Positions 1-38,025 of a stretch of 42,039 nt of DNA are shown one piece after another. The translations under genes and the position numbers were made by a program. Below the pieces are notes generated by a model. It saw only the letters and a list, made by a program, of their open reading frames with translations, ran no database searches and was not told the origin of the DNA. The stretch lies in the IMG/VR virus record IMGVR_UViG_2737471829_000004; one strand, given 5' to 3'. The DNA is from a virus (Duplodnaviria; Heunggongvirae; Uroviricota; Caudoviricetes). Every line of letters begins with the position of its first letter. The stretch's first letter is position 1.

Positions 1-923
1 AGCCGTCACGGTGTTTTGTCCGGCTGACCATCCGGCCTGCGGCGTCATAGTCATACTGCGTGTTTCCGGCCTGTTTCAGCCGGTGGCCTCCGGCATACTG
101 GTCAGTCTCTTCACTTATCCGGTGCCTGCCCGCAGACTGCGCCTTCAGGTAGCCACAACTGTCATAGCCATAGGACTCATCGCCTTCGCCATAGCCCAGC
201 CCGGTGCCTGAGGCTGTCACCGCCGTGACCTGGCCGTTCCGGTCCAGCCGGTATTCCCGCCGTGTTTCCCGTCCGTAATCTTCCCGGCTGGTGACGCCTG
301 ACACGTTACCCGCGCTGTCGTAACGGTACTCCCGTACCAGTGAGGGAACCAGCCCGCCCCATGTGGCTTCTTCCGGAAAAAATCCGGCGCGCTGGCTGAC
401 AGGCTGACCGGCTGCATTCCAGCCCTGTTCACAGGCAAAACCCCGGTTACTGTGCCGGAGCACTTCACGTCCCGCCTCATCACGGCTGAACGTCAGCGTC
501 TCATCCCCCGGCAGGATAACCTCTGCCAGTTCTCCGGCGGCGTTGTAACGGTAGGTGGTTTTCAGCAGGGATTCATCGGGATGTCTGTCGCGTTCATCTT
601 CCGGTGGCAGGATACAGCGGATGACGGTGTGTTCATCGGGGTAGTGGTATTCAATGGCCCGTCGGCCCTGAGTGGTGACATTCACCCGGCCGCGTTCGTC
701 GTAGCCGGTGCGCTGTGATGTGCCGTCCGGGCTGAAGATACCCGTCAGCCTGCCGGATTTGTCATAGGCATACTGCGTTTTCCCTTCCGGCGAGATGACT
801 TCTGCCAGGCGGCCTGCGGCATCCCGGCTGTAGAGGATGGTTTCCTCCAGGCCGTTAACCCTGGCGGTACAGAGGCCATCGGCGTCATAGCGGTAACGCC
901 AGACCACGCCGCCCCAGTCATGC
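1..923 (-). pseudogene. rhs gene, 3' portion of the Rhs repeat core, separated from its 5' part by the prophage; continues beyond window start
   Basis: Minus-strand frame read from 923 downward gives an open YD-repeat sequence (..DWGGVVWRYRYDADGL..YAYDKSGRLTGI..YRYNAAGELAEV..YRYDSAGNVSG..) with no ATG-initiated ORF in the track. It continues in frame from the Rhs ORF right of the prophage. Confidence 0.75.
919..923. repeat. Target-site duplication, left copy (CATGC)
   Basis: The 5 bp just outside the left Mu end are identical to the 5 bp just outside the right end (38021-38025). Confidence 0.8.
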
Positions 924-1110
924 TGTATTGATTCACTTGAAGTACGAAAAAAAACCGGGAGGACATTGGATTATTCGGGATCTGATGGGATTAGATTTGG
1001 TGGGGCTTGCAAGCCTGTAGCGCAAATTTTAGTCGTTAATCAATGAAACGCGAAAGATAGTAAAAAATTGCTTTTGTTTCATTGAAAATACGAAAAACAA
1101 AAACACTGCA
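924..1110. promoter_or_regulatory. attL region with transposase-binding end sites (L1-L3-like)
   Basis: Terminal sequence plus repeated CGAAA-containing motifs (tacgaaaaaaaacc; aacgcgaaagatag; aatacgaaaaacaaaaac) spaced as in the Mu left end. Confidence 0.7.
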
Positions 1111-1262
1111 AATCATTTCAATAACAGCTTCAAAAAACGTTCAAAACCGATAACAACCAGGCTGTAACCAAATGACTCATATCACAAATCAGCTCATGCC
1201 GTTTAGGTATGTTACATGTGTGATTATGTGAGGTGAAGTATGTTTTAGCTGGTTCATGGTTG

Positions 1263-1781
1263 TTATACGGCTTTTTTTACATCTTGTGGTTCTTGCGAAG
1301 GAGCTACAAGACCTTCCTGTTCATGAATACCATGCTCTGACAAAATCTCTTTGCGCTCTTCTGCTGGTAAAGTTTCTAGCATTTGGGCGAGTTGTATGCA
1401 CTCACGCGATACGCCGTGCAGAGATTGGATTTGAGTCTGATCAAAGATACTTGGCATTAGTGCACTAAGTCCACCTTTACTAAGTAGCTTTAATGCCCTC
1501 TGGATTTCCTCTGGTTCTAACTCTGCAACCAAAGCCATTAACACAGAAGCTAACTTATAAGCTGACTTATCGTTATCTAATAACTGCGCCCCTCCTAATT
1601 CTGCCTGAGTGGCATCAGGTAATGAGCTGATATGGTATTCATAAGCAACACCCTTTACTCCTTTGATCTGTCTCTTTTTCCATCCCTCATTAGTTGCTTT
1701 GCGGCTAATACTACTTGCTGAAGACGGAAGACCAGCAACCCCTTGTAGCTCTTTAGCTGAAAACCATTCTTGTGTCATCAC
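1263..1781 (-). CDS. c: Prophage repressor (c), D108-type
   Basis: 172-aa ORF divergently placed from ner-A-B. Its N-terminus ([36 protein letters not shown]) is paralogous to the transposase N-terminus, as in Mu-family repressors. Confidence 0.85.
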
Positions 1782-1969
1782 AAACCTCGCTTTAAATACA
1801 CGATGTATTCAAAGAAATGAAAAATATATTCACTTTAAAATCATCGAGATAGATGAATTTCAAACAAAACATTTGAATACACTATTGCATTGACAATGTA
1901 TTCACACTAGCATTACTGCATACCTTATCAGCTACCTTGCGGCGTAGCTGATGGCGTAGCTTGTGAGGA
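1782..1969. promoter_or_regulatory. Early operator/promoter region (divergent repressor and early promoters; transposition enhancer region)
   Basis: AT-rich intergenic region between divergent c and ner with repeated TGTATTCA / TGAATACA motifs and an inverted repeat cagctac..gtagctg. Confidence 0.6.
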
Positions 1970-1978
1970 TTGCATTTT

Positions 1979-2197
1979 ATGGCGATAAAGAAAAGTAAAT
2001 GTGAAGACAAAAGTAGATACGACATTGTTGCTGATCTGCGCAAAAGAGGAAAAAGCCTAGCAGCTCTTGGTCGTGAGAACGGTCTCTCTATCTCTACGGT
2101 AAAAAATGCCTTGGATAAACCTTACCCTCGGGGGGAAAGAATCATTGCCGATGCATTGGGAGTTGAGCCACGAGACATCTGGCCTTCGAGGTATTGA
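1979..2197 (+). CDS. ner: Ner-like DNA-binding early regulator
   Basis: 72 aa from the first ATG; C-terminal ...[18 protein letters not shown] matches the Ner/Nlp family signature. Position between c and A. Confidence 0.85.
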
Positions 2198-2199
2198 AA

Positions 2200-4200
2200 A
2201 TGCAACCACAATGTAATGATTGGTTTTCTGCAAAGAAATTAGAAGGGCTGATAGGTCTTCCAAAATCCTCTAGCGCGATCTCTCGTAAAGCAAGGTTAGA
2301 ACAGTGGGTGTTTCGACAGATACACGGGGTAAGAGGAGTAGCCTATGAGTTTCATATCTCATCTTTACCAAAGGAAACGCAAGCTGCGTTGTTGCTTAGA
2401 CAAGGAGAGATCGAAACAAGCCAGGGCCGTTTTGAAATCGCCCGCCCCACGCTGGAAGCCCATGATTATGATCGTGAGGCACTGTGGAGCAAATGGGATA
2501 ACGCCAGCGATTCCCAGCGCAGACTTGCTGAAAAATGGTTGCCTGCGGTTCAGGCCGCAGACGAAATGCTGAACCAGGGGATTTCAACAAAAACGGCTTT
2601 TGCGACCGTTGCAGGGCATTACCAGGTCAGCGCATCCACTTTGCGGGACAAGTATTACCAGGTACAGAAGTTTGCGAAGCCTGACTGGGCGGCTGCGCTT
2701 GTTGATGGACGTGGTGCATCCCGTCGCAACGTTCACAAAAGTGAATTTGACGAGGATGCCTGGCAGTTTCTGATTGCAGATTATCTGCGACCGGAAAAGC
2801 CCGCCTTCCGCAAATGTTATGAGCGTCTGGAACTGGCAGCCCGCGAGCATGGCTGGAGTATTCCCTCCCGTGCCACGGCCTTTCGCCGGATTCAGCAACT
2901 GGACGAGGCAATGGTTGTTGCCTGTCGTGAAGGTGAACATGCACTGATGCATCTGATACCGGCACAGCAGCGAACTGTGGAACACCTGGACGCCATGCAG
3001 TGGATCAACGGCGACGGTTATCTGCATAACGTCTTTGTACGCTGGTTTAACGGTGATGTGATCCGCCCGAAAACATGGTTCTGGCAGGATGTGAAAACCC
3101 GAAAAATTCTGGGCTGGCGCTGCGATGTGAGCGAGAACATTGATTCAATTCGCCTCTCGTTCATGGATGTTGTGACTCGCTACGGTATCCCGGAGGATTT
3201 TCACATCACCATTGATAACACCCGTGGTGCTGCGAATAAATGGCTGACGGGAGGCGCGCCCAATCGCTACCGCTTTAAGGTAAAAGAGGACGATCCAAAA
3301 GGACTGTTTTTACTGATGGGGGCGAAAATGCACTGGACAAGCGTTGTTGCCGGTAAAGGCTGGGGCCAGGCAAAACCTGTTGAACGTGCTTTCGGTGTTG
3401 GTGGGCTTGAGGAATACGTTGATAAGCATCCGGCACTGGCTGGCGCATATACGGGGCCTAATCCGCAGGCAAAACCTGATAACTATGGCGACCGCGCTGT
3501 TGATGCAGAGCTGTTTCTGAAAACCCTTGCCGAAGGTGTGGCGATGTTCAATGCCAGAACAGGCCGTGAAACAGAAATGTGCGGAGGCAAACTTTCGTTT
3601 GATGACGTTTTTGAGCGTGAATACGCCAGAACGATTGTGCGTAAGCCTACCGAAGAGCAAAAACGGATGCTGTTACTGCCTGCCGAGGCGGTGAACGTTT
3701 CACGTAAAGGCGAGTTCGCGCTTAAAGTTGGCGGCTCCCTTAAAGGTGTGAAAAACGTTTATTACAACATGGCGTTAATGAATGCCGGAGTGAAAAAAGT
3801 TGTGGTCAGATTTGATCCACAGCAGTTACACAGCACGGTTTATTGCTACACCCTGGACGGTCGGTTTATCTGTGAAGCGGAATGTCTGGCACCTGTTGCG
3901 TTTAATGATGCTGCGGCAGGCCGTGAATATCGCCGCCGCCAGAAACAACTGAAATCTGCGACGAAAGCAGCAATTAAGGCACAGAAACAAATGGATGCAC
4001 TGGAAGTGGCAGAGCTGCTGCCGCAGATAGCCGAACCTGAAGCACCAGAATCACGAATTGTCGGCATTTTCCGGCCTTCCGGTAATACGGAACGGGTGAA
4101 GAATCAGGAGCGTGATGATGAATACGAAACTGAGCGTGATGAATATCTGAATCATTCGCTGGATATTCTGGAACAGAACAGACGTAAAAAAGCCATTTAA
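2200..4200 (+). CDS. A: DDE transposase A (MuA family)
   Basis: 666 aa. From [12 protein letters not shown] onward it matches recalled MuA almost residue for residue; the N-terminal DNA-binding region differs from Mu. The track ORF begins 6 nt upstream at a TTG. Confidence 0.95.
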
Positions 4201-4238: not shown

Positions 4239-5177
4239 ATGAATATTTCCGATATTCGCGCAGGACTGCGCACGCTTGTAGAAAATGAAGAAACCACCTT
4301 TAAACAAATTGCTCTTGAGAGCGGACTTTCTACCGGAACTATCAGTAGTTTTATCAATGATAAGTACAACGGGGATAACGAGCGTGTTTCACAAATTCTG
4401 CAACGCTGGCTGGAAAAATATCATGCAGTTGCAGAACTACCTGAACCGCCCCGCTTTGTGGAAACGCAGACGGTAAAACAAATCTGGACAAGTATGCGTT
4501 TTGCCAGCCTGACTGAAAGTATTGCTGTTGTATGTGGCAATCCTGGTGTGGGCAAAACCGAAGCGGCCCGTGAATATCGCCGCACCAATAACAATGTCTG
4601 GATGATCACCATTACGCCATCCTGTGCCAGCGTTCTTGAATGTCTTACTGAACTGGCGTTTGAGCTGGGAATGAATGACGCACCACGCCGTAAAGGGCCG
4701 CTCTCCCGCGCCCTGCGACGTCGCCTTGAAGGTACACAGGGGCTGGTTATCATCGACGAAGCTGATCATCTTGGTGCCGAAGTTCTGGAAGAACTCCGCC
4801 TGTTACAGGAATCAACCCGTATTGGCCTTGTGCTGATGGGAAATCACCGGGTTTATTCAAATATGACGGGGGGTAACAGAACGGTTGAATTTGCCCGTCT
4901 GTTTTCCCGTATTGCAAAGCGCACTGCAATTAATAAAACCAAAAAAGCCGATGTAAAAGCTATTGCGGATGCCTGGCAGATTAACGGCGAAAAAGAACTG
5001 GAGTTATTACAGCAGATTGCGCAGAAACCAGGTGCGCTTCGCATTCTGAATCATTCACTTCGCCTTGCCGCCATGACGGCTCACGGTAAAGGTGAGCGTG
5101 TTAACGCAGATTATCTGCGTCAGGCTTTCCGTGAATTAGACCTGGACGTTGATATTTCAACGCTGCTGCGTAATTAA
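4239..5177 (+). CDS. B: Transposition ATPase / target DNA activator B (MuB family)
   Basis: 312 aa with Walker A GNPGVGKT and Walker B VIIDEADHL; immediately downstream of A. Confidence 0.95.
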   Translation: MNISDIRAGLRTLVENEETTFKQIALESGLSTGTISSFINDKYNGDNERVSQILQRWLEKYHAVAELPEPPRFVETQTVKQIWTSMRFASLTESIAVVCGNPGVGKTEAAREYRRTNNNVWMITITPSCASVLECLTELAFELGMNDAPRRKGPLSRALRRRLEGTQGLVIIDEADHLGAEVLEELRLLQESTRIGLVLMGNHRVYSNMTGGNRTVEFARLFSRIAKRTAINKTKKADVKAIADAWQINGEKELELLQQIAQKPGALRILNHSLRLAAMTAHGKGERVNADYLRQAFRELDLDVDISTLLRN

Positions 5178-5192: not shown

Positions 5193-5420
5193 ATGATGGC
5201 CCGAAATATAAAAATGGCAACGGATGCGCAGAACTGGTTACAGGCGCGCGGGAGTCATGTAAATGAATCATATCTCGGCGTGGCGCGTCCGATTCTTGAA
5301 ATCACTTACCCACCGGTGGAACTGGTAAAAAACGCGGTCAGAATTATGGAGCATAAGTCCGGGGTGGCCCGTTCTGTATGGACGGCCCGTCTTAATGGTT
5401 GCCAGATTATCTGGAGATAA
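5193..5420 (+). CDS. Small early protein at the kil position (Kil-like by position and size only)
   Basis: 75-aa ORF directly after B with RBS aaggag upstream. Assignment is positional. Confidence 0.4.
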
Positions 5421-5422
5421 CG

Positions 5423-5653
5423 ATGTGTATTAAAGCCGAAAAATATATTGAATGGGTTAAACACTGTCAGTGCCACGGGGTGCCGCTGACGACATATAAA
5501 TGCCCCGGATGTGGTGAACAGATTATGACGCAATGCTCACCCGAAAAGGAAATTCGGGATTCCCTGACATGTTGTCCGTGGTGCAGCGCGGTTTTCTTTA
5601 AGCAGGTAAAAGGCGCGAAGGTAAAAGCCAGCGCAGTTATTCAGAATCAATAA
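5423..5653 (+). CDS. Cys-rich small early protein (putative zinc ribbon)
   Basis: ATG preceded by ggag; CPGCGEQ...CCPWC motif. The track ORF starts at 5399 overlapping the previous gene. Confidence 0.4.
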   Translation: MCIKAEKYIEWVKHCQCHGVPLTTYKCPGCGEQIMTQCSPEKEIRDSLTCCPWCSAVFFKQVKGAKVKASAVIQNQ

Positions 5654-5664
5654 GGAGAAACAAA

Positions 5665-5934
5665 ATGGCAAAGGTTATCTTTGAGTTTACATGGCTGGAA
5701 AGTAGTGACGGTTGCAATGGGCGCAGAGAAGTTCTGGATGCAAAAGCATGTCTTGCAGATATCTCGCCAACGGAAAATACCGGGCCTCATGATTTACTGG
5801 CAAATATCGTCCTGACTATGGCTCCTGAAATTATTAAAAAGGCCAAAGATGAGATGCTGACCACTATGAAGAAAGTGGGTATGGAGGCTGAATGTGATTT
5901 AGTACCACATCCGGTGAATGCGGTTAAACATTAA
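5665..5934 (+). CDS. Hypothetical early protein
   Basis: 89-aa ORF with strong RBS (aaggagaaacaaa ATG) in the co-directional early operon. Confidence 0.55.
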   Translation: MAKVIFEFTWLESSDGCNGRREVLDAKACLADISPTENTGPHDLLANIVLTMAPEIIKKAKDEMLTTMKKVGMEAECDLVPHPVNAVKH

Positions 5935-5954
5935 TTCGCAAAGGAGCGCTGACA

Positions 5955-6374
5955 ATGAACGTCAAAATCCGAAATGAAATTCAGGCATTAATCCGAATTC
6001 AGGAACGCAATAACAACGGTGGTGAATTACGCGAGTTTATTTGCGCCCGGAAAGTTGATGGTTGTGGTGAAAAGACTTACCTGATTGCTTTCGACCATTA
6101 CAGCATCTGTGCGCGTTATTGCGGCGAAAGCATATCCCGCGCCATTGCATTTGGCGGTGCGTTCAACGTGGATTTATGGGAGTACGTCATGGACCGGGAA
6201 TACATCTGCGCATCAGACCCTGAAGCCCGTGAAATGTGGCAGCGTATCTGGCGCGATTACCGGTTAATGGCAAAAGGCTGGGCGCGCTGCTGTTATTCCT
6301 CGCTTGCCCTGAAAGCGGTTCAGTTATCGCTACGGCATATTCCGGCATCACTGCGCGAGCCTCTGCTGTACTGA
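5955..6374 (+). CDS. Hypothetical early protein
   Basis: 139-aa ORF with RBS aaggag upstream, tightly packed in the early operon. Confidence 0.55.
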   Translation: MNVKIRNEIQALIRIQERNNNGGELREFICARKVDGCGEKTYLIAFDHYSICARYCGESISRAIAFGGAFNVDLWEYVMDREYICASDPEAREMWQRIWRDYRLMAKGWARCCYSSLALKAVQLSLRHIPASLREPLLY

Positions 6375-6674
6375 ATGGTGACTGACATGAAGTGTAATCG
6401 TAAGCGCTGGTCACGCGAAGACCGGGAATTTATCGAAGCCAACGTCGGAAAAATGACCGTTGAAGAAATGGCGGAAAAACTGAAAGTCGCCACAACCGCC
6501 CTCCGGGCACATGCCAGAAGGCACGGAATATCATTGTGTGTATACCGAATCAGTGAACACGACAAATATTTATGTCGTGAACTTTATAAAGAAGGACTGG
6601 ATATTCATGTCATTGCCCGAAAGATGGAATTAAGCAATCGAGCTGTATCCAGCATTGTATACAGCGGATATTAA
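6375..6674 (+). CDS. Hypothetical early protein with possible helix-turn-helix
   Basis: 99-aa ORF; segment MTVEEMAEKLKVATTALRAHARRHG resembles a DNA-binding HTH. Start uncertain (alternative ATG at 6387). Confidence 0.45.
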   Translation: MVTDMKCNRKRWSREDREFIEANVGKMTVEEMAEKLKVATTALRAHARRHGISLCVYRISEHDKYLCRELYKEGLDIHVIARKMELSNRAVSSIVYSGY

Positions 6675-6693
6675 TTAACAGGAGCTTTAATTT

Positions 6694-7218
6694 ATGGCTA
6701 AACCAGCAAAACGTATCAAAAGTGCCGCAGCGGCTTATGTGCCACAAAACCGCGATGCGGTGATTACCGATATTAAACGCATCGGGGATTTACAGCGCGA
6801 AGCATCACGTCTGGAAACGGAAATGAATGATGCCATCGCGGAAATTACGGAGAAATTTGCAGCCCGGATTGCACCGATTAAAACCGATATTGAAACCCTT
6901 TCAAAAGGTGTTCAGGGATGGTGTGAAGCGAACCGCGACGAACTGACAAACGGCGGCAAAGTGAAGACGGCGAATCTTGTCACCGGTGATGTATCGTGGC
7001 GGGTCCGTCCACCATCAGTAAGTATTCGTGGTATGGATGCAGTGATGGAAACGCTGGAGCGTCTTGGCCTGCAACGCTTTATTCGCACGAAGCAGGAAAT
7101 CAACAAGGAAGCGATTTTACTAGAACCGAAAGCGGTCGCAGGTGTTGCCGGAATTACAGTTAAATCGGGAATTGAAGATTTTTCCATTATTCCGTTTGAA
7201 CAGGAAGCCGGTATTTAA
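6694..7218 (+). CDS. gam: Gam, DNA-end-binding host-nuclease inhibitor
   Basis: 174 aa with RBS caggag; sequence recognised as Mu Gam-like. Confidence 0.85.
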   Translation: MAKPAKRIKSAAAAYVPQNRDAVITDIKRIGDLQREASRLETEMNDAIAEITEKFAARIAPIKTDIETLSKGVQGWCEANRDELTNGGKVKTANLVTGDVSWRVRPPSVSIRGMDAVMETLERLGLQRFIRTKQEINKEAILLEPKAVAGVAGITVKSGIEDFSIIPFEQEAGI

Positions 7219-7316
7219 TACCACCATTAATATTTAATTAATTCACATTCTTTTAATTATGGCGCGATGCGTCAGGGGATTGCTCGCGCCTGAAACAGAT
7301 TACTGAGGAATAAAAC

Positions 7317-7847
7317 ATGGTTGATGCAAAAATTCTGAATGGTGTCAGCACATTATTACGGGCTTACGGACGCCTGACCTGCGGAGTTCTGGCTGAAAAA
7401 ATGAAGATGCCTCCCTCATCAATGGTGTATTTCCTGCGTGATGCGGTTGATGTCGGCGTTCTCACCGAATGCAACGGATTTTATGACGTTCCGCGCCCGC
7501 GTCCGACGCCGCCTGTAAGACGAAACGCAACTGAGCAGCCTGCTGTTGATGATGCGGTGTGGTGCAACTGGCGTCGCTCATTACCCTGGGTGGAAGGTAA
7601 TACCATCCCCGCACTGGCAAAAGAGTTTGCGACAGGCGTACTGACCTGTGAGTCCGTTCACATCGTTGCAGAAGTGGATGACGAGATGTGCAAACAGGGA
7701 ATGCCACGTTTTGTGATGGCTTATATCGATATCCGGCTGGGGCGGTTTATTTGCAGTTCAAGCGCCTGGAATATCACCGACCATGTACTGCGTTATCTCA
7801 TTCTTGATTGTTCTCCGGCTCCCGTAGCGGTGCAGGAGGTGGCGTGA
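7317..7847 (+). CDS. Hypothetical early protein
   Basis: 176-aa ORF with RBS gaggaataaaac ATG. Confidence 0.5.
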   Translation: MVDAKILNGVSTLLRAYGRLTCGVLAEKMKMPPSSMVYFLRDAVDVGVLTECNGFYDVPRPRPTPPVRRNATEQPAVDDAVWCNWRRSLPWVEGNTIPALAKEFATGVLTCESVHIVAEVDDEMCKQGMPRFVMAYIDIRLGRFICSSSAWNITDHVLRYLILDCSPAPVAVQEVA

Positions 7848-8371
7848 TGTTTTTTAAAACGTCAAATCCCGCAGCACTGCTGGCGTGGGACCAGTTTATG
7901 GCGGACTGTCTGAAACTACGCGAAGAAGCCCGCCATCTTGATAAGGTTCTGGGTTGTGGTTGCCGGTCAGTATTCAGCACAGGTATTGGTGGGCGTTATT
8001 TTCATGGTGTGAACTTTCCGGGGAATGAGCGCCCTTTCTCGCGGGAGCTGTGGACCGTACAACGGCCCGCATCAGGTAACAGTTGCAGGCCTAGAACTTC
8101 GCGGATACCTGTTCATCTCAGGGAGCAGGCAAAAGAGCTGGCGAAAATATGGCAGGAGAATATTCCGGTCACTTATGCCCGCACAGATGCTCTTTTACCC
8201 GCACTGGGACTGGATTTCAGCGCAACAATATTCGGGCCGCTCCGGTGGTTCCGTGTTGGTGATGTGATTTACGTCATGACGGGGATGACACCCGCACAGG
8301 GCTGCATGACGGAAATCCTGTCCGATGAATTCATGAAGGCAAAGATTGCGTTAAAGGGGGCCGCTAAATGA
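7847..8371 (+). CDS. Hypothetical early protein
   Basis: ATG after aggagg; the track ORF starts at 7808 overlapping the previous gene. Confidence 0.45.
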   Translation: MFFKTSNPAALLAWDQFMADCLKLREEARHLDKVLGCGCRSVFSTGIGGRYFHGVNFPGNERPFSRELWTVQRPASGNSCRPRTSRIPVHLREQAKELAKIWQENIPVTYARTDALLPALGLDFSATIFGPLRWFRVGDVIYVMTGMTPAQGCMTEILSDEFMKAKIALKGAAK

Positions 8372-9036
8372 AAGAACGTGGCGTTGCTTTTAATGACGAT
8401 ATGGTCAGGGCAATTCTCGAAGGAAGAAAGACGCAAACACGCCGCCCGGTAAAAAATGTCGGACACGATAACTGTCTGGTTATCCATCGTAACGGTGTTT
8501 ATACCCACGTTATGGATGCACCTGAGCATGGTTTATGCCCGTTCGGTAACGTTGGTGATCGCATCTGGGTCCGTGAAGCGTGGGCAATATTAGGCAATGA
8601 GGATGGTTGCAGTGTGGACTGGAACGGCAACCTTTGTCATGGCGATGAGAAGAAGGCAGCAAGGATTTATCGGGCAAGTTGTGAACAAAAGCCTGGTGAT
8701 TACGGTCTGTGGTCAATACCTGATGATGCTGACTGGAAACCTCGCACTGTGAATGAAAAGTTTGATGGCAGGTGGTGCCCATCTATCCACATGCCGCGCT
8801 GGGCGTCGCGCATTCTGTTGGGAATAACCGACGTGCGTGTGGAACGGCTGCATGATATTAGCGAGGCAGATGCGAAAGCGGAAGGCGCATTTCCGGCGAC
8901 GTACAAAATTACGCCACCGGAAGCTGTTTATCGCGTTGGTTTTGGTGATATCTGGCGCGGTATTTATGGGCAAGATAACTGGCTGTCTAATCCGTGGGTA
9001 TGGGTAATTGAGTTTAAGCGTATTCAGGAAGCATAA
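8368..9036 (+). CDS. Hypothetical early protein, possible ASCH/PUA-like N-terminal motif
   Basis: 222-aa ORF; MVRAILEGRKTQTRR and GDRIWVREAW are reminiscent of ASCH-like domains. Recognition is tentative. Confidence 0.5.
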   Translation: MKERGVAFNDDMVRAILEGRKTQTRRPVKNVGHDNCLVIHRNGVYTHVMDAPEHGLCPFGNVGDRIWVREAWAILGNEDGCSVDWNGNLCHGDEKKAARIYRASCEQKPGDYGLWSIPDDADWKPRTVNEKFDGRWCPSIHMPRWASRILLGITDVRVERLHDISEADAKAEGAFPATYKITPPEAVYRVGFGDIWRGIYGQDNWLSNPWVWVIEFKRIQEA

Positions 9037-9038
9037 CT

Positions 9039-9380
9039 ATGAGCAAATCACTTAATGCACGTTGTATTCGCCGTTGGGAAGTCAGATTTAAGCCTGTTTG
9101 TGATTCAAAAGTTAGCCCTCACATGCGTAAAAGCTTTTTGCGTGGGGTGCGTGAATTAGGGCTTATTACGGCTGAAAACATGGTTGAAAGCATGGCTGAG
9201 AAAAACGCCAGGTTTGATTACGACGGCAAGGACACAGGCTGGTCACCGGAGTTTTCTAACTGGTATGCAACATGCCGAGAAAAGTATTGTAAAGAGGCCC
9301 GCGACTATCTGGATGAAGAAGTCACAAACGATGAGATCGATGAAGAAATCAGAACTGAGCTAGAGTATTGGAATGACTAA
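9039..9380 (+). CDS. Hypothetical early protein with acidic C-terminus
   Basis: 113-aa ORF, start coupled to the previous stop. Confidence 0.45.
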   Translation: MSKSLNARCIRRWEVRFKPVCDSKVSPHMRKSFLRGVRELGLITAENMVESMAEKNARFDYDGKDTGWSPEFSNWYATCREKYCKEARDYLDEEVTNDEIDEEIRTELEYWND

Positions 9381-9447
9381 TCTGGCCGATATGACCGGAA
9401 AGTGTTTCAGCGATACAAGCGGTGTGGTAGCACCGCTTTTTAAAGGT

Positions 9448-10005
9448 ATGATCATGAGTCGCACATCCCTGATTAAATTAATCCATGTCGCCCGTCGTGA
9501 TCTACAACTCGACGACGATACTTACCGCGCTTTTCTGATGCAGAAAACGGGCAAAATCAGTTGCCGCGAGCTGACGGTAACGCAACTGGAACAGGTGCTC
9601 GATGCCATGAAAGAACGCGGCTTTAAGAAGCTGAATAAACATCCACGTCGCCGCTTTAAGGGGCATGTCACGCCCCGCGAGAAGGTATACAAAGTCTGGC
9701 AGCAGATGGCAGAAGACGGTTTTATTACCGATGGCGGTGATGTGGCGCTGGATAAATATGTTCAGCGCCTGACGGCGAAACGTAATGGCGGACAGGGTGT
9801 TTCCACGCTGGCGTGGTGTCATGGCGACACCCTGTTGATTGTTCTCGAAACTCTCAAGCAGTGGCATATCCGCTGTATTCGTGAAGCCTTTTCCCGTCAC
9901 GGGCTTCCGTTGCCGGTCAGTCCGTCCGGGCGTGAACTGCGCGGCTATGATGCCATGACGGCGGCTTATGCCCATGCCAGAAAGACACGGAGGATGGCAC
10001 AATGA
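9448..10005 (+). CDS. gemA: GemA-like early protein
   Basis: Placed directly upstream of mor as in Mu; family recognised by position and size. Start chosen at an internal ATG; the track ORF starts at 9373. Confidence 0.55.
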   Translation: MIMSRTSLIKLIHVARRDLQLDDDTYRAFLMQKTGKISCRELTVTQLEQVLDAMKERGFKKLNKHPRRRFKGHVTPREKVYKVWQQMAEDGFITDGGDVALDKYVQRLTAKRNGGQGVSTLAWCHGDTLLIVLETLKQWHIRCIREAFSRHGLPLPVSPSGRELRGYDAMTAAYAHARKTRRMAQ

Positions 10006-12213: not shown

Positions 12214-12415
12214 TGCAGAACTGACGGAAGCAACGCCCGTTCCGCCCATGCCACAGCCCCTGACGTGGGGAGCATCCCTTCTCTGGAATGCTGACCTGCT
12301 GATGGCGCTCGGGCAGTGCAACCGCGACAAGGCATCAGTCCGGGAACAGGAGACCCGGAGGAAAGAAATTTATGAACGAAGACCAGAACCGGGCGGTGGC
12401 GCTGCTGCTCGCTGA
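12074..12415 (+). CDS. Putative o-spanin (Rz1-like lipoprotein) in the +1 frame, overlapping the i-spanin 3' end
   Basis: Internal ATG in the alternate frame gives MMQNKKLQPPLPVTIAALVLCLPLLLTGCG, a lipobox signal peptide, followed by a Pro-rich sequence. Length is unusual for an o-spanin, so the end is uncertain. Confidence 0.4.
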   Translation: MMQNKKLQPPLPVTIAALVLCLPLLLTGCGNSKNAPVPSVVILPETDAELTEATPVPPMPQPLTWGASLLWNADLLMALGQCNRDKASVREQETRRKEIYERRPEPGGGAAAR

Positions 12416-31773: not shown

Positions 31774-32306
31774 CACCCTATCAGACGGCCTTTCTGCAAT
31801 TACTGCCGTCAGGGCTTGCCTGGAATAAAAGCCCCGACAGCAAATTATCTGCGCTGGCGCAGGCCATCAGCGACGTGATTGCCACTGCGGCGGATGATGC
31901 GCGGCAAATGCTGCGGGAGCGTTTCCCGTCCACATCCCGCTGGTATCTGGGGGAGTGGGAATCATTTCTGGGGTTGCCGGACTGTACCAGCGAAAACGGC
32001 ACCTTGTCCGAACGCCAGCGGGCTGCCGCGAATAAAATGCGTATGACCGGCAATCTGAGTCGGCGCTTTTATGAATGGCTGGCTGCGCAGTACGGTTTTA
32101 CCGTCAGGCTGACGGATTCCACAGAAGGCCAGTGGGTTACGCAGGTCAATATTTACGGTATTAAAAATTATCGCAACGCAACGGTGCTGGATAATGTCCT
32201 GACGCCGTTACGTGTTTATGAATCGGGTGCGCTGGAATGTTTACTGGAGAAATATAAACCCGCGCATCAGATTTATAAATTTGTTTACCATGACGGAGAT
32301 AACTAA
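31764..32306 (+). CDS. Baseplate / tail-fibre attachment protein (Mu R-like)
   Basis: 180 aa, position directly before the tail fibre gene. Confidence 0.65.
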   Translation: MAVTPYQTAFLQLLPSGLAWNKSPDSKLSALAQAISDVIATAADDARQMLRERFPSTSRWYLGEWESFLGLPDCTSENGTLSERQRAAANKMRMTGNLSRRFYEWLAAQYGFTVRLTDSTEGQWVTQVNIYGIKNYRNATVLDNVLTPLRVYESGALECLLEKYKPAHQIYKFVYHDGDN

Positions 32307-33661
32307 TGTTTTATATTGATAACGACAGCGGCGTAACCGTCATGCCGCCCGTATCCGCCCAGCGTAGTGCTATCGTTCGCTGGTTTTCAGAAGGTGACGG
32401 GAATAATGTTATCACATGGCCCGGCATGGACTGGTTTAATATTGTTCAGGCGGAGTTATTAAACACGCTGGAAGAAGCTGGTATTCAACCGGATAAAACA
32501 AAATTAAACCAGCTTGCACTGTCCATTAAAGCCATTATGAGCAATAACGCGCTGCTGATAAAAAATAACCTCAGCGAAATTAAAACTGCCGGGGCATCAG
32601 CACAGCGTACAGCACGTGAAAATCTGGATATCTATGATGCCAGCCTGAACAAAAAAGGACTCGTTCAGCTAACCAGTGCCACTGACAGCCCCAGTGAAAC
32701 GCTGGCAGCCACCGCAAAAGCGGTGAAAATTGCGATGGATAATGCCAATGCCCGTCTGGCAAAAGACCGGAACGGAGCAGATATTCCCAATAAGCCGCTG
32801 TTTATCCAAAACCTCGGTTTACAGGAAACGGTAAACAAGGCTGGTAACGCTGTTCAGCGTTCTGGCGATACAATGACCGGAAAACTGAATCTACCACAGA
32901 CATCTGCATTCGGCGTTAATACCGATAATGCACTGGGTGGTAATTCCATTACTCTCGGAGATAACGACACCGGTATTAAACAGGGCGGCGATGGTGTCCT
33001 TTTATTCTATTTAAATGGACAACTGATATTTGGGCTTCAACCCACATCCGCTGATTTTTATAAGCGAGTTGCCTACATTCATCAGGGAGTAGCTCCAGAT
33101 GGGAGTGGCGCATTTGCAGACCAGTTAAATAATGCCACCGCGCCTTTTGTTCAGACGCAGTTTGCCTGGAATCCCACTCCTGGCGGTCATTACGTACCGA
33201 TAGCTAAGGGCTTGTCCATTCGCAATGGACAGGGGTATCCAGGTGCGGTCAGCTTTGGTTATTTACTAACTGAACAAATGGGATTTCCCATACCATGCAT
33301 TCATATGCGTGGAGATTACGGAGCTGATGCTTTGTGGCAGTTTAACCCGAACGATAAATCTTTTATTTCACCGGGTGCTCTTGTTGCGGGTGGCATCCGT
33401 TATAACACCGATGGAAATATATTTGGCGGGTGTTGGGGTTCAAATTTAGCTGATTATCTCAATAGCACATATGTAAGAGACATTCGACTTGGTAGCGCAG
33501 AATCAATATCAGCATGGCGAGGCCCTGGTTACTGGGATACTTCTGGATATGTTCTGACCGCAGCCGGAAACAGCAACACCGATGAATTTATTGATACATT
33601 AACCAGAAGGCCTATTCAGAAGTTGATTGGTGGGACATATTATAACGTTGTGAGTATTTGA
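32306..33661 (+). CDS. S: Tail fibre protein S (constant part fused to the variable part in the current G orientation)
   Basis: 451 aa; the reading frame runs through the left gix site at about codon 165; the variable part shares motifs with S' (NALGG.SI.LGDNDTG.KQ.GDG). Confidence 0.85.
32801..32826. repeat. gix recombination site (left), inside S
   Basis: ttatccaaaacctcggtttacaggaa; its inverted partner at about 35635-35660 is identical in 25 of 26 positions. Confidence 0.85.
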
Positions 33662-33662
33662 C

Positions 33663-34190
33663 ATGATGCATTTAAAAAACATTAAAGCAGGGAACCCAAA
33701 AACACCTGAACAATACCAGTTAACCAAAAAAGCTGGAGTGGTCTGGCTTTATACTGAAGATGGTAAAAACTGGTACGAAGAACAAAAAAACTTTCAACCA
33801 GATACTATAAAAATTGCATACGATAAAAATAATGTGATTGTTACCGTAAGCAAAGATGTTTCAACGATTAACCCGGAAGGTTTAAGTGTTGTTGAAGTAT
33901 CCGATATTACGGCAAATCGTCGCGCAGACAATAACGGAAACTGGATGTTTCTGGATGGTAAAGTAGTAAAGCGGGAATATACAAAACAGGAGCTGCAACA
34001 GCAGGCAGAGTTACAAAAATCCGCTTTGCTTTCCGAAGCGGAGTCTGTGATTCAACCGCTGGAACGTGCTGTCAGGCTGAATATGGCAACTAATGAGGAA
34101 CGCGCACGACTGGAGTCATGGGAACGCTACAGTGTTCTGGTCAGCCGTGTGGATACGGCAAATCCTGAATGGCCACAAAAGCCTGAATAA
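33663..34190 (+). CDS. U: Tail fibre assembly protein U
   Basis: 175 aa beginning [23 protein letters not shown], paralogous to U' on the opposite strand. Confidence 0.85.
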
Positions 34191-34218
34191 AAATTAAGGC
34201 CCGATAGCGGGCCTTGTC

Positions 34219-34752
34219 TCATTCTGGTTGTTCCGGGAATGTTACAGGAAGAACAGAGGTATCTGTGGCATCAACCTGCTGCATGTATAACATCCAGTTA
34301 ATGAGTCTTTGCCTGTCTGAATCGCTGATAATTCCCAGCGCAAGCTGTGTTTGCCAGCACTGCGTTTCCTCTCTGGCCTGTCGCAGCAAAATCTGTTTCT
34401 GAATTTCAGCCAGTTGACGTAGTTCTTCATCAGTCCGGGGGCGTTTCATGACCTTGCCATCCTGAAACACCCAGTCACCGAGAATATCGGCCCGGCGATT
34501 CGCTGTCGTGTCGGGTAATTCGACAACGCTCATTCCTTCCGGGTTAATAGACGACACATCTTTTTCAATATAGCGAATGATACCTCTGTCATCGTAAGCG
34601 ATTTTTAGTGTGTCTGCCTGAAAGGCTTTTTGTGCCTCATACCAGTTCTGACCATCTTCAGCGTAAAGCCAGATAACACCATGTCTCTTTGTTAACTCAT
34701 ACTGTTCCAGTGTTTTAGCATTACCCGCTTTTATGTTCTTTAAGTGCATCAT
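34219..34752 (-). CDS. U': Alternative tail fibre assembly protein U'
   Basis: 177 aa beginning [25 protein letters not shown], paralog of U in inverted orientation. Confidence 0.85.
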   Translation of the reverse strand: MMHLKNIKAGNAKTLEQYELTKRHGVIWLYAEDGQNWYEAQKAFQADTLKIAYDDRGIIRYIEKDVSSINPEGMSVVELPDTTANRRADILGDWVFQDGKVMKRPRTDEELRQLAEIQKQILLRQAREETQCWQTQLALGIISDSDRQRLINWMLYMQQVDATDTSVLPVTFPEQPE

Positions 34753-34753
34753 A

Positions 34754-35634
34754 TTAAACGCTCGCTACATTATACCAGGTGCCATTTATATACTTTTGAA
34801 CGGGTCTGTAATAAACGCCCGCTATATTATCGGCAGAGTTGGACCCTGTATCCTGAACATTAATACCAGACAATACATGACCTGACGGGCACTTGAAATT
34901 CCATGTTTGCCAGTTGTTCACACCATGATATTGCTGTGAACCAAGACGAACATCTTTTACGTATCGGGAATCAAAGTTACTCCAGTTACTTGGTTGTATG
35001 TGACCGTTTACAGCAAATATCACCGAATTATCTGTATTTCGCTGACTATAGAAATGCCAGCCTGAATCATCACCAAGCTCTGCAACAGTTGGTCTTGATG
35101 AAGTGCCCCATAAATTAAAACCTACGTTTTTCGTGGAGTTGTTGGAGCTGGATAGCGTGAATTTTTTACCATCCCCGGCCTGAACGTTTTTAAAAGCAAT
35201 AGCAACTCCATTCTGAAAGCGGAATACTCGCTGACTATTAGCGTAAACATCCAGAATACCGTCTCCATTCTGTTTAAATCCGGTATCATTATCACCAAGA
35301 ACAATAGAGCTACCACCTAACGCATTCGTCGTACCAACTCCAAGGCTGCCATTAATGACGGCATTAACAAGAATATTTAGTGCATCCCATTTCAGCGTCA
35401 TCAGGTCTTTTGTTGTGGTGCTTTGTTTGCTTCTCCATTTGAAATATTCATTGCCGTTGTCGCCTGTTTCAAACCACATGTATGAATCAGTGTCACCATC
35501 GGCATCATTTTTAAATCCAATCTTCGCCCAGTCAGTATTTCGAATCCAGGCAAGGATTGAGTCATTTTCAAAAGTAAGCCCACCGGACAAAGTATCGCCA
35601 TTTTTTTGCACGGCATTACCAGCCCTGTTTACCG
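34754..35634 (-). CDS. S': Alternative tail fibre variable part S' (no independent start; expressed only after G inversion)
   Basis: Open frame from the right gix site to 34754; upstream sequence ..[20 protein letters not shown].. parallels the S junction ..[20 protein letters not shown]... Confidence 0.8.
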
Positions 35635-35660
35635 TTTCCTGTAAACCGAGGTTTTAGATA
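35635..35660. repeat. gix recombination site (right)
   Basis: ttcctgtaaaccgaggttttagataa, inverted copy of the left gix. Confidence 0.85.
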
Positions 35661-35715
35661 ATGGCCGTTTCCGGCCTGCATGGCATGATTTGCGATTTTG
35701 GACGGGAGATTCAGC

Positions 35716-36297
35716 GTGCTGATTGGCTATGTAAGGGTATCAACAAATGACCAGAATACAGACCTGCAACGAAACGCTCTTGTTTGTGCAGGATGTGAAC
35801 AAATATTTGAAGATAAATTAAGCGGAACAAGGACAGACAGACCTGGATTAAAGCGCGCTTTAAAGCGTCTTCAAAAAGGTGACACACTGGTTGTCTGGAA
35901 ACTGGATCGCCTCGGGCGAAGCATGAAACATCTGATTTCTCTCGTCGGAGAACTAAGGGAGCGAGGGATTAATTTTCGCAGCCTTACTGACAGTATTGAT
36001 ACGTCATCCCCAATGGGGCGTTTTTTCTTCCACGTTATGGGTGCCCTGGCTGAAATGGAACGAGAACTAATCATCGAGCGAACGATGGCTGGACTTGCTG
36101 CCGCCAGAAATAAAGGCCGTATTGGTGGGCGACCACCTAAACTAACCAAAGCGGAATGGGAGCAGGCCGGGCGTTTATTAGCACAAGGAATCCCCCGCAA
36201 GCAGGTTGCATTGATCTACGATGTGGCCCTGTCAACTCTGTATAAAAAACACCCCGCGAAACGAGCGCATATAGAAAACGACGATCGAATCAATTAA
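35716..36297 (+). CDS. gin: Gin serine DNA invertase
   Basis: 193 aa from a GTG start (MLIGYVRVSTNDQ...); resolvase/invertase catalytic N-terminus with serine and C-terminal HTH. The track ORF starts 18 nt upstream at a TTG. Confidence 0.9.
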   Translation: MLIGYVRVSTNDQNTDLQRNALVCAGCEQIFEDKLSGTRTDRPGLKRALKRLQKGDTLVVWKLDRLGRSMKHLISLVGELRERGINFRSLTDSIDTSSPMGRFFFHVMGALAEMERELIIERTMAGLAAARNKGRIGGRPPKLTKAEWEQAGRLLAQGIPRKQVALIYDVALSTLYKKHPAKRAHIENDDRIN

Positions 36298-36391: not shown

Positions 36392-36580
36392 ATGAAATCA
36401 ATTCGCTGTAAAAACTGCAACAAACTGTTATTTAAGGCGGATTCCTTTGATCACATTGAAATCAGGTGTCCGCGTTGCAAACGTCACATCATAATGCTGA
36501 ATGCCTGCGAGCATCCCACGGAGAAACATTGTGGGAAAAGAGAAAAAATCACGCATTCTGACGAAACCGTGCGTTATTGA
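36392..36580 (+). CDS. com: Com, zinc-finger translational activator of mom
   Basis: 62 aa with CxxC...CxxC (CKNCNK...CPRCKRH); overlaps the 5' end of mom. Confidence 0.85.
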
Positions 36581-37247
36581 GTATGAAGGCCAGATTGTTG
36601 GCTATGGTTCAAAGGAGCTGCGCGTTGAAACCATATCCTGCTGGCTGGCCCGCACAATTATTCAGACAAAGCACTATTCCCGCCGTTTTGTGAATAACTC
36701 TTACCTCCACCTGGGAGTGTTCAGCGGACGCGATCTGGTTGGCGTTCTCCAGTGGGGATATGCCCTTAACCCCAACTCAGGTCGTCGTGTCGTGCTTGAA
36801 ACGGATAACCGGGGCTATATGGAGTTGAATCGCATGTGGCTACACGACGACATGCCCCGCAACTCTGAATCACGGGCCATCAGCTACGCGCTGAAAGTTA
36901 TCAGATTACTGTATCCGTCAGTGGAGTGGGTTCAGTCCTTTGCTGACGAACGCTGCGGACGCGCAGGCGTTGTGTATCAGGCGTCGAATTTTGATTTTAT
37001 TGGCAGCCATGAAAGCACGTTCTACGAGCTGGATGGTGAGTGGTATCACGAGATAACGATGAACGCAATTAAGCGCGGTGGACAACGAGGCGTGTATTTA
37101 CGGGCTAATAAAGAGCGTGCCGTGGTGCACAAATTTAATCAGTATCGCTACATCAGGTTCCTGAACAAGCGAGCAAGGAAGCGACTAAATACTAATCTAT
37201 TCAGGATCCAACCATATCCAAAATCAACTCTGACTAGTATCAAATAA
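36501..37247 (+). CDS. mom: Mom, DNA adenine modification enzyme (anti-restriction)
   Basis: Sequence from [33 protein letters not shown] onward recognised as Mu Mom; last gene before the right end. The true start codon is uncertain. Confidence 0.85.
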
Positions 37248-37306
37248 CTTATTTATTCCTGCTGAAAAGCAGCTCCTCATGGCATAAAATTGTTCACGTG
37301 AGTTTA

Positions 37307-37344
37307 AAATGACCAAATGGCAGTACAGTATTTGGTCATTTTAT
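37307..37344 (+). terminator. Hairpin downstream of mom
   Basis: 12-bp inverted repeat aaaatgaccaaa...tttggtcatttt with a large loop, followed by T residues. Confidence 0.45.
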
Positions 37345-37376
37345 GGGGTGAATTTTAAAGTCAAAACGATGGTAAG

Positions 37377-37718
37377 GTGCATATGAAAAAAATACTCATA
37401 GCAGTACTACTTTGCTTTGGTGTTCTTTCTGCTAATCAGGCAATAGCGGCTGTTACCTTAAGCGGTAAGTATCCTGCATGCATATCTGCTAATGAATTCG
37501 AGCGATTAAGCTCAATTTTGCAACACGAAGATCAAGAGGCGTTTGAAGAGATCTTTAAGACATCATGCTTTATGCCTAAAAAGGGGGTTAAAGTTGATAA
37601 AGTTGTTTCTATGGGGTGGACCAGTGGAGTTGCGCATGTCAAAGTTTATGTAAAAGGCAATCTTTACGATCTTTGGACTAACACCGAAAATCTTCAGTCC
37701 GAGAAGGCTGGTAAATAA
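37377..37718 (+). CDS. Small secreted protein of unknown function (cargo/moron candidate)
   Basis: 113 aa; signal peptide MKKILIAVLLCFGVLSANQAIA-AV; RBS aaggtg 5 nt upstream; locally AT-rich; lies inside the prophage between mom and attR. Confidence 0.5.
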   Translation: MHMKKILIAVLLCFGVLSANQAIAAVTLSGKYPACISANEFERLSSILQHEDQEAFEEIFKTSCFMPKKGVKVDKVVSMGWTSGVAHVKVYVKGNLYDLWTNTENLQSEKAGK

Positions 37719-37899
37719 CGCTGTAATCAACGTGTAATCACATCTCCTACCAGCTATCGCCTGATAAAGTTAGGTGATAGCTATTTCAATACTCTCTAGT
37801 TTCACTGAAAGCACGAAACTTAATACCTCCATTCCAGATTGCTTAATAATCGAGCATTTTTATCTTGAATGTTTTTGCGCGCTTTATCAGCCATACCCT

Positions 37900-38020
37900 A
37901 AGTGATCCCCATGTAATGAATAAAAAGCAGTAATTAATACTGCTGTTTCATTTGAAGCGCGAAAGCTAAAGTTTTCGCATTTATCGTGAAACGCTTTCGC
38001 GTTTTTCGTGCGCCGCTTCA
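37900..38020. promoter_or_regulatory. attR region with transposase-binding end sites (R1-R3-like)
   Basis: tgaagcgcgaaagctaaag, cgtgaaacgctttcgcg and the terminal ..tttttcgtgcgccgcttca match the recalled Mu right end. Confidence 0.7.
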
Positions 38021-38025
38021 CATGC
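38021..38025. repeat. Target-site duplication, right copy (CATGC)
   Basis: Identical to 919-923. Confidence 0.8.

Follow-up and report, generated by a model that had tools for sequence, protein, structure and literature searches.

The window analysed here, a single stretch of 42,039 nucleotides from a tailed-phage record, carries an rhs coding sequence in two pieces that lie on the same strand and some 37 kb apart, which raises the question of what split the gene, at which base, and how long ago. The evidence points very strongly to a recent insertion of a complete Muvirus prophage into a vgrG-linked, Eag-dependent class I Rhs effector gene. An earlier note made from the letters of this DNA had placed a Mu-like insertion at 919-38025 and reported CATGC at both of its termini. 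The pentamer can be read directly on each side and the insertion itself stands, while its limits required refinement, as that interval takes in both copies of the duplication and the element proper occupies 924-38020 (37,097 bp, 51.8% GC, early genes on the plus strand). The outer features are as follows.

924-38020, plus strand: complete Muvirus prophage (identity to Mu relatives, gene content, near-identical copy elsewhere)
919-923, no strand: left copy of the target-site duplication, CATGC (direct reading and intact-locus alignment)
38021-38025, no strand: right copy of the target-site duplication, CATGC (direct reading and intact-locus alignment)
924-1096, plus strand: left end (attL) with terminal TG (MuA-site matches at 929-950 and 1075-1096; 95% identity to Mu 1-458)
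37944-38020, plus strand: right end (attR) with terminal CA (three MuA-site matches; 98.5% identity to Mu 36584-36717)

The prophage begins with TGTATTGATTCAC (from 924) and finishes with GCGCCGCTTCA (to 38020), and the longer terminal reads, 5'-TGTATTGATTCACTTGAAGTACGAAAA at the left and ...TTTTCGTGCGCCGCTTCA-3' at the right, are canonical Mu termini (TG...CA). Searching with YGTTTCAYNNRAARYRCGAAAR, which we take to be the MuA-binding consensus, and allowing up to three mismatches, returned six matches against 0.15 expected, two at the left and three at the right falling within the terminal 175 bp. By position the two left matches correspond to Mu L1 and L3; the L2-like sequence between them has more than three mismatches and so lies beyond the limit of the search. 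The matches in attR at 37994-38015, 37972-37993 and 37944-37965 (inverted) correspond by position to R1, R2 and R3, and the sixth match, at 37798-37819, sits ~200 bp inside the right end. CATGC flanks both prophage ends and is single in the intact locus. By chance alone, five bases would agree between two fixed positions with a probability of 1/1024; the rebuilt reading frame described below was counted as the stronger evidence. Mu prefers N-Y-(G/C)-R-N targets, a statistical preference only; taking this to be the right consensus, CATGC falls outside it on both strands, and nine of 11 other insertions of the lineage fit it.

Between these ends the genes stand in the order known from Mu, from c, ner, A and B through to gin, com and mom.

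1263-1781, minus strand: repressor c, 172 aa (Pfam HTH_Tnp_Mu_1, E 4.9e-23; 95.9% amino acid identity to the PhiR68_1 repressor)
1979-2197, plus strand: ner (98.6% amino acid identity to PhiR68_1 Ner, full length)
2200-4200, plus strand: transposase A, MuA (99.2% amino acid identity, 666/666 residues, no stops)
4239-5177, plus strand: transposition ATPase B, MuB (99.7% amino acid identity, 312/312 aa)
5193-10391, plus strand: semi-essential early region with kil, gp6-gp9, gam, gp11, gp12, two ORFs, gemA and mor (comparison with PhiR68_1 and Mu)
10811-11233, plus strand: late activator C (100% amino acid identity)
11328-32306, plus strand: lysis, terminase, portal, head, connector, sheath, tube, tape measure and baseplate genes (PhiR68_1 CDS alignment, as for the next five lines)
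13164-15402, plus strand: terminase
15402-16940, plus strand: portal
up to 20903, plus strand: head genes
22537-24024, plus strand: sheath
24979-27051, plus strand: tape measure
32306-35661, no single strand: tail-fibre genes and invertible G segment (gene comparison, profile matches, inverted repeats)
32306-33661, plus strand: tail-fibre S
33663-34190, plus strand: tail-fibre U
34219-34752, minus strand: tail-fibre U'
34754-35611, minus strand: tail-fibre S', variable part
35716-36297, plus strand: gin invertase (99.0% amino acid identity)
36392-37247, plus strand: com and mom (100% and 99.6% amino acid identity)

The DDE transposase A, the AAA+ target activator B and a Mu-type repressor are all present, as are the invertible G segment (inverted repeats at 32802-32880 and 35583-35661) with gin, two alternative tail-fibre sets, com and mom. 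Throughout 11328-32306 each PhiR68_1 coding sequence aligns end to end at 96-100% amino acid identity and with no stops. When the tail-fibre variable region and the right-end accessory slot are set aside, 48 of 48 PhiR68_1 coding sequences, from c to mom, are full length and uninterrupted by stops. Given these full-length genes and the MuA-site matches at both ends, the prophage looks functional, viability being judged here from gene intactness. Nucleotide identity to Mu, D108 and SfMu is 97-98% in the shared segments, which together with the gene order bears out the description of the element as Mu-like. The match to PhiR68_1, a phage on which a literature search found nothing specific, is 98.2% over 924-32880 (32 kb).

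The same phage has moved to other sites. Escherichia coli 2014C-3075 (NZ_CP027447.1, 764311-801407) carries a copy within ddpA that has the same length of 37,097 bp and differs by four SNPs with no gaps, and ten further copies of the lineage lie next to ten different right flanks. All 12 copies (this one, that of 2014C-3075 and the ten others) thus differ in their right flanks, meaning that the lineage has no fixed attachment site.

The host sequence on both sides of the prophage comprises the two rhs pieces and two genes preceding them.

38021-40850, minus strand: 5' rhs fragment, residues 1-943 (prePAAR, hydrophobic region, PAAR, DUF6531, first half of the YD repeats)
2-919, minus strand: 3' rhs fragment, codons 944-1249 of the rebuilt protein (Pfam RHS_repeat, E 1.3e-29; all YD/RHS repeats)
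40870-41331, minus strand: Eag-type T6SS effector chaperone (DcrB/DUF1795), 153 aa (Pfam DcrB, E 1.4e-27)
41359-42039, minus strand: 3' part of vgrG, last ~225 codons of a 633-aa protein (Gp5_trimer_C, Phage_base_V, Gp5_C)

The Rhs ORF, with its start at 40850 on the minus strand, reads ...YVLDNCGRVTEEH as far as the junction and then runs 44 codons into Mu attR to a stop at 37887, giving a total of 987 aa. Profile searches of the 5' fragment matched PAAR_motif (E 6.5e-16), DUF6531 and, at residues 54-100, prePAAR_I, the last with 26.7 bits and so barely over the Pfam cut-off of 25. RHS_repeat was matched on both sides of the break (E 9.5e-43 upstream and, as listed, 1.3e-29 downstream), YD_repeat_2x was matched as well, and a hydrophobic stretch seen by eye in the N-terminal translation, FLGALAGAVLGAIVTIAEGCLIMAACATGPYALVLVPALMYASY, is a putative transmembrane region. 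This domain content, preceded by a DcrB/Eag gene and the 3' part of vgrG, agrees with the earlier designation of the gene as a T6SS rhs effector, and its predicted domains place the interrupted gene among the class I prePAAR-PAAR-Rhs T6SS effectors. Effectors of this class need Eag chaperones (PMC7773334), and their Rhs cage encloses the toxin and undergoes aspartyl autoproteolysis (PMC8636562). The insertion had been thought to part the PAAR-Rhs delivery portion from the core and the toxin. The PAAR-Rhs portion is indeed separated from the rest, and the toxin does lie beyond the window, but the break is not at a boundary between delivery part and core: it falls after residue 943 (of 1,620 in the intact relative), in the middle of the YD-repeat shell, and at least 306 further repeat-region codons follow it. 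The 3' fragment is open to the left end of the window, with the Rhs core, toxin and immunity gene beyond that end, and the start of vgrG is likewise outside. In the intact relative, E. coli STN0717-20, vgrG is full and annotated 'T6SS tip protein VgrG', the Eag counterpart is annotated 'DcrB-related protein', and the 1,620-aa Rhs homologue includes Rhs_assc_core at 1410-1470 and Tox-MPTase4 at 1485-1613, with a 69-aa ORF downstream of the gene. Its island lies between cusS and nfrB and is flanked by IS1 and ISEc1; a literature search on a vgrG-rhs island beside nfrB/cusS found nothing specific.

Once the phage and one CATGC are removed, the minus-strand Rhs frame is continuous, reading ...VTEEH and then, across the junction, DWGGVVWRYRYD...; deletion of 924-38025 leaves one frame that stays open for 1,249 codons, as far as the window end, and reads ...VTEEHDWGGVVWRYRYDADGL.... 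The codon string gag cat gac tgg that the earlier note gave for the rebuilt junction is exact, and the frame remains unbroken after exact base counting. The note had also proposed aligning the flanks to an uninterrupted homologous rhs locus, and had named flanks that are not contiguous in a related genome as the finding that would overturn its reading. Aligned to the STN0717-20 locus, the flanks abut base for base: window 1-923 corresponds to 11878-12800 with no mismatches (100% identity), and 38021-42039 to 12796-16814 with three mismatches and no gaps (99.93%), so that the two alignments overlap by exactly five bases, CATGC. The rebuilt empty site is present uninterrupted and in one piece in 2,089 of 5,426 complete E. 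coli genomes.

No evidence contradicting a Mu insertion was found, minor points aside, and the readings that compete with a recent one can be weighed against the same observations. We consider it very unlikely that the prophage is a relic, long fixed and now decaying, that a whole lineage has inherited, rather than the recent insertion of a live phage. The sequence argues against such a relic on several counts: the conserved phage genes are all full length, prophage ends and MuA sites alike are intact, the target-site duplication has no mismatch, the rhs piece downstream of the break shows no differences from an intact allele in 923 bp, the rebuilt protein differs from that allele at two of 1,249 residues, and a copy only four SNPs away occupies another site in another strain. 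In none of the 5,426 complete E. coli genomes did a match span 80% or more of an rhs::Mu left-junction query, exact matches to the junction were absent from GTDB species representatives and from JGI metagenome contigs, and the gene-position index holds no record of the 987-aa fusion ORF. Because the junction occurs in no collection searched, the insertion is, on this comparison, strain-specific and recent, and the earlier impression of recency gains support from each of these lines.

The remaining alternatives are exceedingly improbable. Some genomes hold several copies of rhs genes and of Mu-like phages, and such repeats can mislead short-read assemblers, which might have misplaced a Mu-like contig between halves of a repeated rhs sequence; an assembly artefact of this kind would not set exact Mu termini against a perfect duplication of a pentamer that is single-copy there in intact alleles, and both junctions are unique sequence with unambiguous read-through. 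Replicative transposition of Mu is generally known to cause adjacent deletions and inversions, and up to four places per genome match this rhs core, so two halves from different loci might have been joined by a Mu-mediated rearrangement. We give this next to no weight, since it would leave neither a matching 5-bp duplication nor flanks that abut base for base, and the flanks overlap by exactly CATGC on the STN0717-20 locus. It is equally implausible that the element is a Mu of laboratory origin, such as one derived from an engineered donor, and not a natural prophage. MFDpir and other laboratory strains do carry Mu sequences, and MFDpir is among the weak matches (94.8%), but the element is a mosaic relative to Mu in the immunity region, the G-segment alleles and the right-end accessory gene, with 84-87% covered, and a near-identical prophage is found in a clinical stool isolate.

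For the recent Mu-type insertion, we propose that a temperate transposable Muvirus infected an E. coli-like host, infection being the presumed mode of entry, and that MuA and MuB catalysed transposition into the coding sequence of the vgrG-linked prePAAR-PAAR-Rhs effector gene. CATGC would have been duplicated when strand transfer joined the phage ends at two phosphodiester bonds 5 bp apart and the gaps were then repaired, as in Mu integration, where 5-bp staggered strand transfer precedes gap repair (PMC3325207). The prophage is complete and presumably silenced in its current host by its own c repressor. The upstream part of the gene can now yield only a 987-aa product, in which the N-terminal loading region and half of the shell are followed by 44 residues encoded by the phage end, without the Rhs core, autoproteolysis region or C-terminal toxin; the downstream part has been cut off from its promoter and start codon. 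Toxicity of this one effector is expected to be lost, a consequence that is predicted and not read from the DNA, as no T6SS structural genes, toxin or immunity gene were found in the window; structural genes were likewise absent from the island stretch of the intact relative.

We regard it as rather doubtful that the insertion goes beyond inactivation, through read-through, retained immunity, a toxin-less stump at the VgrG tip or an accessory envelope factor. Transcription of c runs towards the left end, which is also the direction of the downstream rhs fragment, and a simple scan found no terminator-like site on the c strand between c and the junction; on these grounds read-through from the prophage could keep the 3' rhs fragment and the immunity gene expressed. 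If so, the lysogen would be disarmed for this toxin yet still immune to kin carrying it. The 987-aa toxin-less PAAR-Rhs stump could also still occupy the VgrG tip.

One further feature lies at the right end of the prophage.

37223-37886, plus strand: accessory block between mom and attR, AT-rich (37.8% GC) and not present in Mu

An ORF in this block (37383-37718) has a 111-aa product whose N-terminus resembles a signal peptide. The protein had no match in Pfam, PHROGs, NCBIfam or PADLOC and only 12 homologue clusters, all unnamed. Its AlphaFold model (pLDDT 77.7) gave no significant PDB match, and the BFVD matches were only to unnamed viral proteins. It could be a new phage-borne envelope factor, acting for example in superinfection exclusion.

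The locus is known biology with a new allele, a clean example of established Mu-type behaviour rather than biology of a new kind; mutagenesis by insertion is what defines Mu, and no new question is opened. It offers a clean natural case in which a phage of the Mu type has disrupted a bacterial weapon gene, and the event can be reconstructed to the base, since thousands of genomes have the empty site and other insertions of this phage are known. The isolate is predicted to be without the activity of this Rhs effector, even though gene finders may still call 'PAAR/Rhs' fragments. For annotation, the two rhs pieces are best treated as parts of a single disrupted gene, and the 37.1-kb element is best labelled an intact Muvirus prophage.

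Compared with known systems, the prophage has in common with Mu (AF083977 / NC_000929), D108, SfMu and PhiR68_1 the TG...CA termini, MuA sites, 5-bp duplication and near-random site choice, along with the gene order of the Mu group (c, ner, A, B, semi-essential, mor, C, lysis, head, tail, G/gin, com, mom). It differs from Mu, which covers only 84-87% of it, in several segments. The immunity region (1383-2361) has no DNA match to Mu, and c is of the PhiR68_1 immunity type. In place of gp13-15 there are two other ORFs (8368-9036, 222 aa, and 9039-9380, 113 aa, within 8335-9412), which matched only PHROG 874 and 6675, both of unknown function, and gave no PADLOC match. The G-segment variable parts (32881-35347) match Mu at ~70% or not at all, the closest match (90.9%) being the Yersinia pestis phage vB_YpM_Tongde, and the 664-bp AT-rich block takes the place of the 'D108-specific' gene beside attR. 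The usual phage species rule is a 95% criterion, and since coverage times identity against Mu is well below this value, the prophage is probably a separate species within Muvirus. The ddpA prophage of 2014C-3075 is effectively the same phage in the same G orientation, differing in its host gene and in its duplication (TTCAG there, CATGC here). The interrupted locus has the same vgrG, eag, rhs order as Salmonella Rhs1/SciW, P. protegens RhsA/EagR1 and Photorhabdus Rhs1/EagR (PMC7773334, PMC8636562), and like those class I effectors its product has a prePAAR, one N-terminal hydrophobic region, a PAAR and a YD-repeat shell, to which the intact allele adds an Rhs-associated core and a C-terminal toxin. 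The toxin of this gene itself lies outside the window, Tox-MPTase4 being that of the closest intact allele, and unlike the effectors named, the rhs gene here is broken after residue 943 by a prophage.

The pentamer CATGC stands at 919-923 and again at 38021-38025 on direct reading of the window, bracketing an element of 37,097 bp (924-38020; first bases TGTATTGATTCACTTGAAGTACGAAAA, last bases TTTTCGTGCGCCGCTTCA) with a GC content of 51.8%, lower than that of the two flanks (61.8% and 57.7%). Translation of the minus strand indicates that the rhs ORF starting at 40850 reads ...YVLDNCGRVTEEH at the right junction and then runs on into the element, reaching a total length of 987 aa:

37887-38020, minus strand: rhs read-through into the Mu right end, 44 extra codons (VKRRTKNAKAFHDKCENFSFRASNETAVLITAFYSLHGDHLGYG, then a stop at 37887)

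A terminator-like hairpin is located on the minus strand at 37944-37926, within this read-through and upstream of the stop. Removal of 924-38025 leaves a single open frame of 1,249 codons extending to the left window end (...VTEEHDWGGVVWRYRYDADGL...), and the base counting at the junction reported in the earlier note is exact.

When the empty site was rebuilt as a 1,600-bp sequence with 800 bp per side and one CATGC, 2,089 of the 5,426 complete E. coli genomes searched contained it as a single stretch, the top match being 99.9%. In alignments to L001, the uninterrupted rhs locus of E. coli STN0717-20, window positions 1-923 matched 11878-12800 without mismatches and positions 38021-42039 matched 12796-16814 ungapped, with three mismatches. 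Exactly five bases, CATGC, are common to both alignments. Over its 1,249 positions the rebuilt protein has two differences from the intact Rhs protein, which is 1,620 aa long and reads CGRVTEEHDWGGVVWRYRYD across the insertion site. The contiguity of the flanks in an uninterrupted rhs gene, on which the earlier note had made its reading depend, thus holds both across these genomes and to the base in L001.

The 943-aa 5′ fragment of the interrupted gene encodes prePAAR_I (motif at 54-100; 26.7 bits, cut-off 25), a hydrophobic region, PAAR (E 6.5e-16), DUF6531 and RHS repeats; the 3′ fragment, as far as it lies inside the window, encodes nothing but RHS repeats. The immediate upstream neighbours are an Eag-type gene (DcrB/DUF1795) and vgrG, of which the window has the 3′ end; together with the domains they support the previous identification of the target as a T6SS rhs effector gene. 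Class I prePAAR effectors depend on an Eag chaperone to be exported by the T6SS (PMC7773334), and the predicted architecture of the disrupted gene is that of this class. In the intact relative (L001) the Rhs-associated core at 1410-1470 is followed by a Tox-MPTase4 metallopeptidase toxin at 1485-1613 and then by a small ORF; the vgrG-eag-rhs island (L001 8849-19276) is situated between cusS and nfrB, with an IS1 and an ISEc1 (ISAs1-family) transposase flanking it. A short rhs-like remnant at L001 10130-10311 has 94.5% identity to part of the rhs gene. Since the Rhs repeats of such effectors form a cage around the toxin, which is released via aspartyl autoproteolysis (PMC8636562), the break after residue 943 falls inside the cage and not at a domain border, leaving the loading region and roughly half a cage upstream. 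From this domain layout we infer that effector function would be lost.

The element shares segments of 97-98% identity with Mu, D108, SfMu and a set of Yersinia Mu-like phages, and aligns to the Mu relative PhiR68_1 at 98.2% over 924-32880 in a single alignment. The 53 annotated PhiR68_1 genes were translated and searched against the window; all 48 that lie neither in the variable tail-fibre region nor in the right-end accessory slot were full length in the element without a stop codon, at 77-100% amino acid identity (≥95% for 45 of them). This set includes the repressor, ner, A, B, gam, mor, C, lysis, terminase, portal, head, sheath, tube, tape measure, baseplate, gin, com and mom genes; the 'D108-specific' gene is absent from the element. 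A scan of the window with a MuA-binding-site consensus returned six matches against 0.15 expected, two at the left end, three at the right end, the innermost of which is inverted as in Mu, and one extra. Together with gin and the G segment, these features uphold the assignment to a Mu-like prophage. Relative to Mu the element is mosaic.

Features of the element (plus strand where marked +, otherwise coordinates only)
1383-2361: immunity region, differs from Mu
5685-5939: variant gp7, differs from Mu
8335-9412 (ORFs 8368-9380, +): two ORFs of 222 aa and 113 aa replacing Mu gp13-15
32802-32880 and 35583-35661: inverted repeats bracketing the G segment, beside gin
32881-35347: G-segment alleles, tail-fibre variable parts S/U and S′/U′, differ from Mu
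37223-37886: right-end block between mom and attR, 664 bp, absent from Mu
37383-37718 (+): accessory ORF, 111 aa, AAGGTG before the start
37798-37819 (+): extra MuA-site-like 22-mer, AGTTTCACTGAAAGCACGAAAC, two mismatches to the consensus

The 222-aa and 113-aa early ORFs, in the semi-essential region, are common to the element and PhiR68_1, whereas Mu has gp13-gp15 there; their matches are the uncharacterized PHROG 874 and PHROG 6675, and neither Pfam nor PADLOC gave a hit. The S/U and S′/U′ variable parts have 52-79% amino acid identity or no match to those of Mu, D108 and PhiR68_1, their closest relative being the Yersinia pestis phage vB_YpM_Tongde (90.9% nucleotide identity), and this suggests a host range other than that of Mu.

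The right-end block is AT-rich (37.8% GC) and contains one ORF, the product of which has an N-terminus, MKKILIAVLLCFGVLSANQAIA, that is signal-peptide-like as judged by eye. The 111-aa protein had no match in Pfam, PHROG, NCBIfam or PADLOC and has just 12 homologue clusters, all in Enterobacteriaceae, with two cysteines invariant across 11 homologues; Yersinia phage vB_YenM_42.18 carries a 57% identical homologue at its right end. An AlphaFold model, confident for the mature part, comprises two helices and, after them, a small beta sheet, with no significant match in PDB and matches in BFVD to unnamed viral proteins only. The extra 22-mer, just 3′ of the ORF and ~200 bp inside the right end, may be a right-end relic left by the Mu-like phage from which the block came.

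MuA, aided by MuB, joins the phage 3′ ends to target phosphodiester bonds 5 bp apart, and on infection the target duplication arises once the flaps have been trimmed and repair has closed the 5-bp gaps (PMC3325207). The structure observed here is the exact product of these steps. CATGC departs on both strands from the Mu target preference N-Y-(G/C)-R-N, but because this preference is statistical the misfit leaves the case unweakened. Nine of 11 other insertions of the same phage lineage fit it (CCGGT, TCGGG twice, GTGGA, GCGGC, ATGGT, TCCGA, ATGGC and TTCAG). The c repressor gene and the downstream rhs fragment are both read leftwards, on the minus strand. As a simple scan of this strand found no terminator-like site from c to the left junction (924-1263), transcription from c might conceivably continue into the orphaned 3′ part of rhs.

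Among complete E. coli genomes the right-end block occurs in only one, 2014C-3075 (human stool, USA), which has the whole prophage, ungapped over 37,097 bp and with four substitutions, inserted in ddpA with its own 5-bp duplication, TTCAG. The assembly collection has the exact 111-aa product in 927 blocks, and in 10 of 10 places listed a Mu-like prophage carries its gene at the right end, directly 3′ of mom, with a different chromosomal right flank each time. The rhs::Mu junction was found nowhere else in complete E. coli genomes, GTDB species representatives or JGI metagenome contigs, and the 987-aa fusion ORF is without record in the gene-position index. The CATGC duplication is undamaged and both rhs halves are undecayed. 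Taken together, the mobile near-identical copy, the unique junction and the undamaged duplication and rhs halves indicate a strain-specific insertion by a live phage lineage, and agree with the earlier view that the insertion is recent.

That the join is an artefact of assembly, that a Mu-mediated rearrangement has joined two rhs loci, that the prophage is an old decayed remnant or that it is laboratory Mu is, even with all four combined, very improbable: the flanks overlap by exactly 5 bp on the intact gene, the phage gene set is intact, a near-identical prophage copy exists at another location, and the element has mosaic differences from Mu. The observation and the interpretation in the earlier note are both correct, and this is a textbook Mu-type insertion. 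The phage lineage responsible is already known from public genomes; what is new is the allele, a disrupted form of a T6SS Rhs effector gene that is common in E. coli.
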